Source of the DNA: Candidatus Thorarchaeota archaeon
GTDB taxonomy: Archaea; Asgardarchaeota; Thorarchaeia; Thorarchaeales; Thorarchaeaceae
Assembly: GCA_016840855.1 (NCBI GenBank)
Contig: JAEORO010000217.1
Span: forward strand, 1 to 45,131
Reading direction: 5' to 3'
DNA length: 45,131 bases
The notes beneath the pieces were generated by a model. It did no database searches and had not been told where the DNA came from. It saw only the letters and a list, made by a program, of their open reading frames with translations. Both the position numbers and the translations under genes were made by a program. Shown piece after piece: positions 130 to 14,472 of this stretch; position 1 is the first letter of the stretch; each line of letters begins with the position of its first letter.

Positions 130-1308
130 CTATGATTGAGTTTGTTTCTCTCGCTCCTTTTCTAGTTCCTTTGTCCTTTTTCGGATATTATCTTCAGTCT
201 TTCCGATTCGTTTTTCAATATCCTTTATTCGCTTATCCCGGGATGCCAATTCATTTTCCATTCGTTTTTGTGCTGCTTGAAACACTTTACTGGCATCAGT
301 CCACTCTTGCTTTGCTAGCCGCATCTGTTCTTCGAGGCTCTCAAAATTGATTCTTTTAACCTCTGCTTGATTCCAGCAGTCACGCACCTCTGACTCTAAT
401 CTAGTTTGGACAGAATCAAGGTCTGATTTGAATTGCGCTAGCTCAGTGTACTGATTTGTTAGATCATTAAAAGAATCTTTAATGGTGGTGTCTTTGAGGA
501 AATCAGAGTCTGGAATCTCAGACATAAGTGTGTCAACTTGAGGTATCCGCGCTTTCGAAGTTAAGTCGCTCCTGCGAGACGGGGGTGGTGTTGGTTTGGT
601 TGAGATCACTGGTTTTGGCTCTGGTGTAGCTATGATTTCAGGTTTAGATAGAGGCTTATCTGGAGGCGCAGAGATAGGTTGTTGAGTAGGAGTGGGTTGT
701 GAAGTGAATTGCGCTGTTCCTGGAGGGCCCATGGGTTGTGATGATGACGCTGGCTTAGAAGGTGGTCCAGTAGTTCCAGGAGGCGTCATAGGTCGTGTTG
801 GTTGAGCCGACATAGAAGGTGGTCCTGGAGCTTCAGACGGAGCACTAGCTGAGGGCTGGACTGCTGAAGGCTGAGCAGCTGGTTTTGGTTCTACCGCCTG
901 CCGCTGGCTCTCTAAATCCCCCATTAGTTCTTGAACCTCACTAGCTCGAAGCATGCGTGTTTCTATGATGCCCTCGCCTGTTTCTTCAATACCCACTTCT
1001 TCTGCTCTTGCAAAAGCTTCCCTAGCTTTTTCCAACTCAGACTTAGGCTTTGAGAGTCCTGTGCTGGATCGGACACGGTCTCGAGCGACTGAACTTGGTT
1101 TGACCCATTGGTCATTGGTAGTGACTCTTACTTCGCTTACTGGAGCTGCAGGAGGCGGTGTCTTTTTCACTTCAGGTATCACCTCTGCTTCATCGGGCGA
1201 AGAAATCGTCTTTGGTTTCGGTTCTACAGAAAGAAGAAGTCCTCCGCATCGTATACAATACTTCCGAGTTGGCTGGTTTGCCCTACCGCATTTGGGACAG
1301 TTTTTCAC
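130..1308 (-). CDS. Hypothetical protein: N-terminal zinc ribbon, long Pro/Ser/Thr-rich disordered linker, C-terminal coiled coil
   Basis: CPKC-x10-CIRC at the N-terminus, a P/S/T/Q-rich middle and a heptad-rich E/K/Q/L C-terminus. Start moved to GTG at 1308 (VKNCPKC), preceded by a GGGGATG SD-like element; the ORF track starts at 1353. Confidence 0.75.
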   Translation of the reverse strand: MKNCPKCGRANQPTRKYCIRCGGLLLSVEPKPKTISSPDEAEVIPEVKKTPPPAAPVSEVRVTTNDQWVKPSSVARDRVRSSTGLSKPKSELEKAREAFARAEEVGIEETGEGIIETRMLRASEVQELMGDLESQRQAVEPKPAAQPSAVQPSASAPSEAPGPPSMSAQPTRPMTPPGTTGPPSKPASSSQPMGPPGTAQFTSQPTPTQQPISAPPDKPLSKPEIIATPEPKPVISTKPTPPPSRRSDLTSKARIPQVDTLMSEIPDSDFLKDTTIKDSFNDLTNQYTELAQFKSDLDSVQTRLESEVRDCWNQAEVKRINFESLEEQMRLAKQEWTDASKVFQAAQKRMENELASRDKRIKDIEKRIGKTEDNIRKRTKELEKEREKQTQS

Positions 1309-1454
1309 TGATTCATCATCCCCATCAAGCGAATCAGCTAAAAATACGTACATCTGTGCTGTAAAGGTTTTCTAAGATACAAGCTACCGCCTCTCTATAA
1401 CCAAGGTAAGCTAATATTCAATGGATACTCGAGGTTATCTACCGGTGATATGAC

Positions 1455-3041
1455 TTGATGAGTCATGCGATCGAAGCTTTGCTAATAACCGACAAAGGTG
1501 GCGCACCCAGATTCTATATGCAGCTCGATCCAAAGGCTCTGAACATGGACCCAGTGATGGCTTCAAGTTTTTTTGCGGCTATTAACATGTTTTCGAAGGA
1601 AGTTTTCGATGAGCGATCTCCGGTGGTCCAAGTAGACTATGGAGCTCGATTGTTTACTTTAATTAATGGTGTCAACACAAATATGATTGCAGTCAGTGTT
1701 CAACGCCTTAATCAGGAATCACTCGATATCTTAGACTCACTTTTAGCTGAGTTTGAACTTGATTGGCTTGAGGTGGTTGATCCTTTTGATTTCAGTTTCG
1801 AAACCTCATTTGTGGATGTCTATCTGGAGGCATTTGGAGAACGAGTCATGGAGAAGCTCTCCCTGCGCCTATTAGGTGAAACCTGGGTGCCATATTTCAC
1901 GACCAAGCTTCAATCACGTGAAGCAGTATCCAGTCTGTTGATGAACTACATCAATGGTTCTAGAAACGTCAATGAGATAATCGAAGTTAGTGGATTATCG
2001 CGGCGCGAAGTTGTACTTGATCTCTCGAAATTATGGGCACATCGTATCATAAGGTTTCGAAATATGTTTAACTTCAATGATTTCATGACAACCGGAACTC
2101 AATTTGTAAGATATGCTCAAGCTACATCATCTGAAACACAAGACTTGAGGACTCTACATCCTGATATGGCTGACGTGATCCCACATCTTGCAGGATTAAT
2201 AGATGGACGTCGAACGGTTAGAGAAATTCTTGCTGAACTTGGAGCTCGCTACGACGAAAGTGAACTCCTGAGAGCTTTAGATTTCCTTATCGAAGTAGGA
2301 GTGATTGAAGCACTAACTCCAGAAAAGCGACGTATTCTTCTAGCAAAAGAAGCGTTGGAGCTTGCGATTCGTGTTGCTGAAGGTAGTTACAATGTCACCG
2401 AAGCAACAAATGCATTACAATTTGTAATGAAAAATACTAAAGCTCCAGAAGCACTAAGTCAGTTACTACTAAAAGATGGCAAGTGGGTTGTAGATTTTGA
2501 TTTTAAGATACTTGAAGGATTAAATCAGCGGCGGCTCATGTTGCTTTTTGGAGAATGGATGAAGATTTTGGCACAGTTTGTCAATGCACTAAATCCAGCT
2601 AAGCTTGAACGATATATCAGTAACTTAACAACTGTCTTTTCTCAACGTATCATAAGACGTTATTCCGCATTCGATTTGAGAGGATTTGAAGAATTCGCCT
2701 ATTGGTTAGAGATATTGAGCACTCCAACAAAGCCGCATGTTGGACCTATTGAAACAAGTCACCTGCAAATAGTATGGTCCAGTGCACTAGAAGAACTTGC
2801 ATATATTCTTGTGACGCGAGGTCATATCATCTATAAATCAGAGAGTATCACTCAAATTCGCTCTGCGTCAGGAACCCCCCTGATTGACTTACTTCCGGCG
2901 GAATGGGTTGGCCGAGATCGAGTGGAAACATTTGAACGCATAATGGTAGAATACTCTAATCTGGGTCCTGCGGCAAAATTAACACTATTAATCCTTGCAA
3001 CGCAACGAGGTATATTGATACCAAAAGAAATCATAATTTAG
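1455..3041 (+). CDS. Longin domain + tandem winged-helix protein, NPRL2/NPR2-like
   Basis: Longin-type N-terminus (IEALLITDKGGAPRF...DPVMASSFFAAINMFSKE), then VPYF...YINGSRNVNEI and a second IDGRRTVREI wHTH repeat. GGTGA SD at 1444-1448. Start is TTG 1455 or ATG 1458. Confidence 0.7.
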   Translation: MMSHAIEALLITDKGGAPRFYMQLDPKALNMDPVMASSFFAAINMFSKEVFDERSPVVQVDYGARLFTLINGVNTNMIAVSVQRLNQESLDILDSLLAEFELDWLEVVDPFDFSFETSFVDVYLEAFGERVMEKLSLRLLGETWVPYFTTKLQSREAVSSLLMNYINGSRNVNEIIEVSGLSRREVVLDLSKLWAHRIIRFRNMFNFNDFMTTGTQFVRYAQATSSETQDLRTLHPDMADVIPHLAGLIDGRRTVREILAELGARYDESELLRALDFLIEVGVIEALTPEKRRILLAKEALELAIRVAEGSYNVTEATNALQFVMKNTKAPEALSQLLLKDGKWVVDFDFKILEGLNQRRLMLLFGEWMKILAQFVNALNPAKLERYISNLTTVFSQRIIRRYSAFDLRGFEEFAYWLEILSTPTKPHVGPIETSHLQIVWSSALEELAYILVTRGHIIYKSESITQIRSASGTPLIDLLPAEWVGRDRVETFERIMVEYSNLGPAAKLTLLILATQRGILIPKEIII

Positions 3042-3116
3042 TGAGGAGGCTAGAATATCTTCCATCTGAAGAACTATTATCTAAGAATTTTGAAGAAACA
3101 CAGTTGGTGACAGTAT

Positions 3117-3632
3117 ATGAGCCCGTCCTATCTATTAAAAATCGTTACAGTCGGATCTGCTTCTGTTGGAAAAACAAGCATCATAATCAGATATTCTACT
3201 GGAACCTTTCGTGAACACTACTCCCCAACATTAGGTGTAGGATTTGCATACAAGAAAATGGATGTTGACGACAACTCAGTAAACCTTCAAATCTGGGATT
3301 TGGGCTCTCAGGACTTTCTTGAACGCACGCGTGCGAACTATTACTTAGGAGCTCAAGGAGTAATCTTCATGTTTGATGTCACCTCTTGGGAATCCCTCAA
3401 TGAGGTAATTGAATGGAAAAATGAAGTTGATCGAAATCTAGAGGACTATCGAGCCATTCTTGTCGGAAACAAGACTGATCTTGCTATGGATCGGGTAGTT
3501 TCTACTGAGGAAGGCCTGAAAATAGCTTCGCAGATGGGGATAGACTACATTGAAACATCTGTTCGCCTTGATATGAATGTCAATAAATCATTCGAGATGA
3601 TTGCCAGAAGCATCATTGCCTCATTTCATTGA
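3117..3632 (+). CDS. Rab-like small GTPase (Ras superfamily)
   Basis: G1 GSASVGKTS, G2 PTLG, G3 WDLGSQ, G4 NKTD, G5 ETSV. RabF-like LGVGF, NLQIW, YYLGA and FMFDVT. No C-terminal Cys. GGTGA SD upstream. Confidence 0.95.
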   Translation: MSPSYLLKIVTVGSASVGKTSIIIRYSTGTFREHYSPTLGVGFAYKKMDVDDNSVNLQIWDLGSQDFLERTRANYYLGAQGVIFMFDVTSWESLNEVIEWKNEVDRNLEDYRAILVGNKTDLAMDRVVSTEEGLKIASQMGIDYIETSVRLDMNVNKSFEMIARSIIASFH

Positions 3633-13875: not shown

Positions 13876-14472
13876 CTATGAGAACGATCTGAAGAACTCC
13901 TCAGGTTCTTGTCCTTCCTCAATAATTTCAATCTCTTGCACTCCGACACGCTCTGCGTCATATCTTCGTGCTAGGATAGTACCATCAAACTTCTCTCGGG
14001 CTGTTGCATCCTTACCACGCCACACAAAAATATCATCCCACGCATCCAGTAGGAAGACATCATCACTCTTCAAGGAGTCCTTACTGAGTTCGACTTCTGC
14101 AAAGAAGGTTTCATCCCCTTCGCGATGAACTCGCCAGAGTTTATGCTCATGACTTTCCATGTGGACCTTCTTCAATATGCCTTCAGTATCTTCATCGGTC
14201 AGTTGGAAGTCATCAAAGAGTGCTTTGAATTCAGCAGGTTCATTTCCTCCCTCAATTCGGTCAATGTCTGCTTTTCCTTCACGCGCTTGATCACTCATCA
14301 CTGCTGATGCGGCTGTGAGAAATTTCTCATCAACTTGTGAATTGGGACCAATCCACAAGTACAGCTTTAAACCAGCGTCAACAAGATAGCAGTCGCCAAG
14401 CCCGAAGTTTCCCGGGTTTTTCATTTTAACAAGGCGACCTTTCTGAATGTGGTATGTAGTTGGTTCTGGCAT
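13876..14472 (-). CDS. Two-domain gelsolin-like protein (Asgard 2DGel type)
   Basis: Two gelsolin repeats: GDCYLVDAGLKLYLWIGPNSQVDEK...GGNEPAEF and DDVFLLDAWDDIFVWRGKDATAREK...EGQEPEEF. Confidence 0.92.
   Translation of the reverse strand: MPEPTTYHIQKGRLVKMKNPGNFGLGDCYLVDAGLKLYLWIGPNSQVDEKFLTAASAVMSDQAREGKADIDRIEGGNEPAEFKALFDDFQLTDEDTEGILKKVHMESHEHKLWRVHREGDETFFAEVELSKDSLKSDDVFLLDAWDDIFVWRGKDATAREKFDGTILARRYDAERVGVQEIEIIEEGQEPEEFFRSFS

Follow-up and report, generated by a model that had tools for sequence, protein, structure and literature searches.

NPRL2 and NPRL3 (Npr2 and Npr3 in yeast) belong to GATOR1/SEACIT, the GTPase-activating protein (GAP) for RagA/Gtr1 (PDB 6ces, 7t3a/b, 8fw5, 8adl, 9o5a/d), and are built from a longin domain followed by two winged helices, with a Gly/Pro motif before longin strand 2. 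They work with DEPDC5/Iml1, and the substrate of NPRL2 is a Rag/Gtr GTPase composed of a G domain and a roadblock C-terminal domain. NPRL2 is listed together with FLCN, SMCR8 and C9orf72 among the GAP longins that carry this "GP motif", located within strand 2 or immediately ahead of it, and its arginine finger neighbours the motif (Traffic 2025, PMC12290439). In prokaryotes, MglB–MglA and other pairs combine a roadblock/longin platform with its own small Ras-like GTPase (PDB 3t12, 6h5b, 6izw). Small GTPases and longin/roadblock proteins number in the dozens in Asgard genomes and are described by Tran et al. (PMC10933270) as rarely placed in operons, so that matching regulators with GTPases from genome layout is hard. 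Asgard longins of the FLCN/SMCR8 type have been described mainly from Heimdallarchaeia, and the partner GTPases of GAP-type Asgard longins are left as a question in the account given of them (PMC12290439). An Asgard "NPRL2-like" family, defined by a longin and an NPRL2-specific C-terminal domain and found in the majority of Thor genomes and in a few from Loki, is catalogued by Liu et al. (bioRxiv 10.1101/2020.10.19.343400, Fig. 5c), and "NPRL2-like longin domain" also serves as an asCOG label for Loki genomes (PMC9834061). Here, we analysed a stretch of 45,131 nucleotides, hereafter the window, which is contig JAEORO010000217.1 of a Candidatus Thorarchaeota archaeon (assembly GCA_016840855.1). 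It carries an NPRL2-like gene (1455..3041, forward strand) followed on the same strand, after a 75-bp spacer (3042..3116), by the gene of a 171-amino-acid Rab-like small GTPase (3117..3632). This arrangement, announced in a preliminary description of the window, was borne out by the open reading frames (ORFs).

The product of the NPRL2-like gene is a remote relative of NPRL2/NPRL3 that has the same domain order and additional C-terminal parts. A profile of 33 family sequences was searched against 177,635 distinct PDB sequences and found human NPRL2 as its best match (6ces_N, E 2.1e-6), with profile positions 143–286 aligned to NPRL2 174–328, a range that covers both winged helices; yeast Npr2 came next, with a weak match (E 0.25). 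An alignment to NPRL2 made by eye in the preliminary description, starting from a stretch that we located inside the ORF 1455..3041 on the forward strand (WVPYFT ... LMNYINGSRNVNEIIEVSGLSRREVVLDLSKLWAHRIIRFRNMFNFNDFMTT), therefore goes beyond chance, as the profile match falls on the very segment that had been named. The protein was modeled with AlphaFold2 from 81 sequences without templates (pLDDT 81, pTM 0.70), a single-sequence model (pLDDT 41) being set aside. When this model was compared with the PDB using Foldseek, all 13 matches at E ≤ 1e-3 were chains of GATOR1/SEACIT entries (338–495 aligned columns), which, judging by length and the chain list, are NPRL2/Npr2 and probably NPRL3; generic PqqD or winged-helix-turn-helix (wHTH) proteins, considered earlier as the other possible outcome, were not the best structural matches, and the ranks below the 13 chains were taken by single longin/roadblock domains. 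The TM-scores to the GATOR1/SEACIT chains are low (0.18–0.27), which indicates that the shared feature is the order of the domains and not their relative orientation. VIA-align superposed the longin domain on roadblock/longin proteins (Z 10–12, root-mean-square deviation 2.5–3.3, 101–129 residues), the partners of residues 2–139 including MglB, synbindin, TRAPP subunits, Sec22b, LAMTORs and AP sigma/mu. Its best 50 matches were single longin/roadblock domains only, with no NPRL2 chains, as expected when a multi-domain model of 528 residues is aligned as a rigid body, the coverage of residues beyond 139 being slight. At the level of domain libraries, Pfam and NCBIfam returned only sub-threshold PqqD/HTH matches on the long protein, and HTH_NPRL3 was reached, below its cut-off, by 4 of the 33 family members (best E 2.4e-4).

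The longin domain, the second winged helix and the roughly 240 residues of helical sequence that had been proposed from the letters alone all match the AlphaFold2 model. Based on this model, VIA-align and conservation, the longin domain spans residues 1–140 (1455..1874), with strands at 6–13, 18–23, 57–61, 66–71 and 75–81 and helices at 33–50, 87–103 and 118–134; its landmarks are a near-invariant G16-x-P18 before strand 2 and a Y62-G63-x-R65 turn. The first winged helix (residues 145–213, 1887..2093), delimited from the model and from the profile alignment to NPRL2 174–~245, is entered through W144-V-P146, carries an I-N-G-S-R motif and has a weak HTH_NPRL3 match (1938–2012, E 0.7). The second one (residues 226–288, 2130..2318), supported by the model and by the profile alignment up to NPRL2 residue 328, is marked by a D-G-R-R-T-V motif and by sub-threshold PqqD matches (residues 244–284). 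Unlike NPRL2/NPRL3, the protein then continues with an extra 130-residue helical domain that includes a small hairpin (residues 289–421, 2319..2717, pLDDT mostly >90), the last residue of which is the end of a core of about 420 residues common to the whole family, and with a module that we call C-ext (residues 422–528, 2718..3038), fused to the core here and encoded by its own gene in paralogous and distant loci. In the model, the C-ext forms helices at 444–471, 489–501 and 505–518 after a low-confidence linker. MglB, one of the top-scoring proteins in the rigid-body alignment of residues 2–109 (Z 11.1–11.5), is a dimeric protein made of a single roadblock domain, whereas the platform of the window is a longin and has about 390 further residues after it.

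The adjoining GTPase is Rab-like and not Rag-like, in agreement with the preliminary description: it matches Pfam Ras with an E-value of 1.5e-45 and all 60 PDB matches listed for it are Rabs, the best being Rab35 (4e-36). In this respect the pair departs both from NPRL2 and its Rag/Gtr substrate and from MglB, whose partner is MglA. The motifs are GSASVGKT (G1), T38 in switch I, DLGSQ in switch II, NKTD and ETSV. Where Rabs have DTAGQ in switch II, the DLGSQ of the linked GTPase, replacing the usual DxxGQ, displaces the conserved glycine by one position and retains the glutamine. Among 16 linked GTPases, orthologues and paralogues together, the MSPSYL start is invariant, the DLGSQDFL stretch is kept and S64 is found in at least 90%. 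Rabs carry one or more C-terminal cysteines for prenylation, whereas the linked GTPase has no cysteine at all and ends just past the G domain; another Thor Rab described by Tran et al. (PMC10933270) likewise ends after the G domain without a prenylation cysteine, and the same authors raise the possibility that Thor Rabs depend on GAPs. Of the 3,983 ORFs of at least 100 amino acids in the host genome, only 18 are small-GTPase-like, and the matches of this genome to Gtr1_RagA are weak (≤34.9 bits) and confined to the G domain.

The adjacency of the two genes is conserved far beyond chance. In a survey of 86 genomes of the host's taxonomic family, 77 GTPases scored at least 247 bits with a profile of this subfamily, other Rab-like paralogues lying near 160 bits, and an NPRL2-like core was found upstream on the same strand for 72 of the 77. 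In 68 of these the GTPase sits 374–551 bp past the core match, which leaves room for a C-ext and a short spacer; the other five subfamily members have no core listed on their contig, and at least some of them lie on fragmented assemblies. The linkage is kept in 15 of the 16 genera, between cores that may be no more than about 40% identical, and persists through changes between fused and split C-ext and through co-duplication. We then collected 60 loci with full-length core genes, consisting of the 30 best-scoring ones and of others picked for diversity, hence not a random sample. Fused cores with the GTPase 2–103 bp downstream account for 25 of them (25 of the 29 of the fused type), and no adjoining GTPase was seen for the remaining four fused cores (two with a short flank, one with a run of N at the gene end, and one rearranged with the GTPase 975 bp off). 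The order core, separate C-ext gene and GTPase occurs in six loci. The host itself has a second module of this kind on another contig (C1), where a 431-amino-acid core is followed by a separate 109-amino-acid ORF homologous to the C-ext and then by a GTPase, so that the full-length paralogue has its own GTPase as well. The two linked GTPases are reciprocal best matches within the host genome (3e-62, the next one being 4e-27, among the 18 small-GTPase-like ORFs), from which, together with the second module, we conclude that core and GTPase were duplicated together. In a quick IQ-TREE phylogeny, the GTPase-linked cores group in a single clade (SH-aLRT 100, 35 rows), all of them from the host's taxonomic family.

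A pairing of the same kind is seen in a distant branch of the family (f17; loci L069, 1566–3999, and L059, 3486–5590, both on the forward strand). There, in two genera, a relative of 347–348 amino acids with G-x-P, encoded between cysS and leuS, directly precedes a 176-amino-acid GTPase-like protein devoid of a P-loop, likely a pseudo-GTPase, and a canonical Rab-like GTPase. Two further arrangements were encountered. In L033 (240–2760, reverse strand), an additional, partial copy (265 amino acids, core 275–421 plus C-ext) stands between a fused core and the GTPase, with a second small GTPase upstream; in L046 (2623–5413), small GTPase genes of opposite orientation border a distant full-length relative on either side.

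The C-ext, of about 100–116 residues, is a partner that can be separated from the core, to which it is fused or adjacent in 51 of the 60 loci. Against Pfam it gave nothing above noise at E ≤ 1, and its best PDB sequence match was no better than E 0.16. The gene found between or before core and C-ext in one locus (L043, 4805–5536, forward strand) and in 15 others encodes a protein of the di-iron metallo-beta-lactamase fold that matches Pfam ODP (1.2e-53), a family known from Treponema, where it acts in chemotaxis as a di-iron sensor that binds oxygen (PMC7666581). The order is core, ODP-family gene and C-ext in 12 loci, and ODP, C-ext and core in four; the last nine of the 60 loci have neither GTPase nor ODP nor C-ext as partner. 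Within the fetched flanks, the third gene of a module is thus a GTPase in 31 loci and an ODP in 16, never both. One of the 16 ODP-linked cases (L048) carries a separate GTPase-linked copy too. The free C-ext of ODP-type loci (L039, 5476–5802; L043, 5527–5844; L062, 2358–2702; and others) ends in a polybasic and hydrophobic tail, for example KKKRKSRFRRML, which may be a membrane-binding element; the tail is not present in the fused C-ext of the window or in the split copies of the GTPase type.

The family, a small one, is restricted to Asgard archaea and has 58 representatives at 50% identity in 1.84 billion proteins. At E ≤ 1e-20 it is found in 105 of 400 Asgard genomes and in 67 of 85 genomes of the host's taxonomic family, the named sources of the relatives being Thor-, Sif- and a few Lokiarchaeota. 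Most members have about 410–420 amino acids and match residues 1–421, the protein of the window being about 105 residues longer; no longer fusion proteins (925–2640 amino acids) with the NPRL2-like core were found at E ≤ 1e-5, which is weak evidence. Both the domain make-up and the distribution agree with the NPRL2-like family as it is presented by Liu et al. (bioRxiv 10.1101/2020.10.19.343400). The protein of the window belongs to the catalogued Asgard NPRL2-like family, as the preliminary description had suspected, and may be a member of the asCOG of Liu et al. The text in which that family is presented does not mention the GTPase neighbour, the separable C-ext or the ODP-linked relatives, and these features belong to the present analysis. 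A shorter family, which may instead be the one meant by Liu et al., occurs as tandem pairs on two other contigs of the host (L004, 1492–3198, and L003, 1510–2798, both on the reverse strand; contigs C44 and C229). Each pair encodes proteins with a longin and two winged helices, one of 291 amino acids with G-E-P before strand 2 and one of 275–279 amino acids with G-E-S, and lies divergent from a roadblock-like 130-amino-acid gene and a Cys-rich 276-amino-acid gene. These proteins give the best HTH_NPRL3 matches in the host genome (8.4e-4 and 6e-3); the copies with and without the proline recall NPRL2 versus NPRL3 and may be the better candidates for a heterodimer.

As to function, we propose that the NPRL2-like protein and the Rab-like GTPase would constitute a dedicated switch module. 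The former, with its longin platform, two winged helices, helical domain and fused C-ext, would bind the GTPase encoded 75 bp downstream and, once bound, control its nucleotide cycle. By analogy with NPRL2 and with longin/roadblock regulators, a GAP-type role would be the most likely activity, exerted without an arginine finger placed as in NPRL2. The proposal follows from the NPRL2 homology, the near one-to-one linkage and the co-duplication, to which are added the resemblance of the longin to the GTPase-regulating MglB, TRAPP and LAMTORs, the pairing in the distant branch, the G-x-P motif and the switch II glutamine. From these observations we infer direct binding, which we regard as likely; the protein might act as a GAP, as a guanine nucleotide exchange factor (GEF) or as neither. 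That it regulates the linked GTPase, more likely as a GAP than as a GEF, is what we tentatively retain as the best single reading. Simple adjacency due to co-regulation or to a shared cassette ancestry, with no contact between the two products, is highly improbable, given that the linkage survives across genera and low core identity, a fusion/split change and a co-duplication.

Several observations weigh against the regulator reading, and most of them also bear on the suggestion of the preliminary description that the locus is a proto-GATOR1. In GATOR1, NPRL2 is active as a heterodimer with NPRL3; no established counterpart of this partner emerged from the analysis. Pfam NPR2 (PF06218) and NPR3 (PF03666) have no match at E ≤ 1 in the protein or in any of the 33 family members, and a six-frame search of the host genome, which is 92% complete, gave none for NPR2 at E ≤ 10, none for NPR3 at E ≤ 1 and none for IML1 (PF12257) at E ≤ 1; the homology must therefore be remote. 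Of the 29 full-length relatives sampled from outside the GTPase-linked clade, 16 share their operon with an ODP gene and, as far as the fetched flanks reach, lack a dedicated GTPase, from which it follows that the scaffold does not need a GTPase. The catalytic arginine raises a further difficulty. In human NPRL2 it is Arg78, on a longin loop. In longins, the sheet order is 2-1-5-4-3, which puts the beta3–beta4 turn at the opposite end from the beta1–beta2 loop. In the family of the window, G16 and P18 have each been retained by 90% or more of the 81 sequences and occupy the place of the GP motif before strand 2, as the near-invariant Gly and Pro do in the GAP longins; one residue stands between them, and where the GAP longins combine GP with a paired arginine finger, neighbouring the motif in NPRL2 (PMC12290439), no conserved arginine is found beside G-x-P and a finger is not evident. 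No Arg or Lys of residues 1–140 exceeds the conservation threshold in both GTPase-linked clades. The two arginines pointed out earlier fare unequally. R19 (in GAPRF), beside G-x-P, is R or K in 13 of 13 fused and 0 of 6 split representatives. R65 (in YGARL) is Arg in 11 of 13 fused and 6 of 6 split ones (17 of the 19 GTPase-linked) versus 8 of 25 others (7 of 12 and 0 of 4 of ODP type, 1 of 9 of the rest), a contrast confounded by phylogeny; according to the strand order of the model it lies on the beta3–beta4 turn and, given the sheet topology, should lie at the other end from the G-x-P loop. With R19 specific to one clade and R65 on a turn that is probably at the opposite end, a finger of NPRL2 type is unproven. 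A strict proto-GATOR1, in which an NPRL2-type GAP would insert R19 or R65 into the active site of the GTPase, thus appears unlikely: NPRL2 is the closest relative by sequence and fold, and both G-x-P and the distribution of R65 are in its favour, but the motif is not a plain G-P and the host genome has no match for NPRL3 or DEPDC5/Iml1 and no clear one for a Rag-type GTPase.

Another possibility, which we consider open to doubt though worth retaining, is that core and C-ext are a transducer with interchangeable inputs, reading the state of a third gene product, GTPase or ODP, and that the protein would be an effector of the GTP-bound GTPase instead of a GAP or GEF. The more constant pairing is indeed that of core and C-ext, the third gene varies as given above, ODP is a known oxygen sensor (PMC7666581), and in the midpoint-rooted quick tree the ODP-linked rows of the host's taxonomic family and of other families branch around the strongly supported GTPase-linked clade. 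However, the loci were partly hand-picked for diversity and the tree is a quick one with a midpoint root, the ODP adjacency may have another cause, longin/roadblock platforms beside GTPases are usually regulators, and the protein has no recognisable output domain. A historical version of this idea, to which we give rather little credence, makes core plus C-ext an ancient Asgard scaffold that worked with an ODP oxygen/iron sensor in several lineages and recruited the Rab-like GTPase later, in the host's taxonomic family; if true, the link between NPRL2 and small GTPases would have arisen by a sensor-to-switch swap, and, in the line leading to GATOR1-type hubs, oxygen or nutrient sensing would predate control by GTPases. 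The winged helices could also bind DNA, with the longin sensing a ligand or the GTPase, as in an archaeal transcription factor. Weak matches to MarR (E 0.032) and to the LexA DNA-binding domain (E 0.83), the basic first winged helix (pI 10.0) and one cluster carrying TrmB (score 0.86, a lead only) among the ESM Atlas neighbours, which are Asgard clusters, would fit such a role. It is nevertheless very unlikely, as the significant winged-helix matches are to NPRL2, whose winged helices are reported to make protein contacts (PMC8534245), and the second winged helix is acidic (pI 4.6).

Taken together, the observation made in the preliminary description is confirmed and its interpretation is supported in part: a remote relative of NPRL2/NPRL3 that shares their domain order stands beside a Rab-like GTPase, which is not yet evidence for an archaeal GATOR1. 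A literature search found no paper describing the NPRL2-like/Rab-like pair or the ODP link, and the separable C-ext, the exchange of GTPase for ODP and the distant branch with a pseudo-GTPase and a Rab-like GTPase are new. The pair is a candidate answer to the question of the partners of Asgard GAP longins. Being near one-to-one, co-duplicated and of soluble size, it would allow a direct bench test of archaeal GTPase regulation of NPRL2 type, whether as GAP, GEF or effector, and the ODP-linked relatives give a second hint on what NPRL2-type scaffolds did before serving GTPases. The bearing on how eukaryotic longin GAPs acquired their specificity is weakened because the GTPase-linked clade lies within one Asgard family and more than half of the other sampled relatives are paired with ODP. 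The linkage to a GTPase seems restricted to one lineage and so may not reach back to the ancestry of eukaryotes, and the value of the finding is also limited by the NPRL2-like family being already in print.

Concerning the gene boundaries, the listed start of the NPRL2-like gene is TTG 1455, giving 528 amino acids up to the stop at 3039–3041. An ATG follows directly at 1458, with GGTGAT a few bases upstream, and is likely the true start, giving 527 amino acids, since the database relatives have this length; a 527-amino-acid hypothetical protein of a Sifarchaeia/Thorarchaeota metagenome-assembled genome shares 95% identity with it. The spacer has GGTGA before the ATG of the GTPase, and no T-run terminator was seen in it by eye. 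A scan of the stretch for promoter and terminator consensus gave matches at chance level, with consensus models that are bacterial whereas the host is archaeal. The surroundings are ordinary chromosome, the window containing a ribosomal-protein/SecY cluster and housekeeping genes. The divergent gene upstream (130–1353, reverse strand) encodes 407 amino acids with an N-terminal zinc ribbon (sub-threshold in Pfam), a long middle part rich in Pro, Ser and Thr and a C-terminal coiled coil. About 10 kb away (13876–14472, reverse strand) lies the gene of a gelsolin-repeat protein (Pfam Gelsolin, 3.7e-30), a known type of eukaryote-like Asgard gene.

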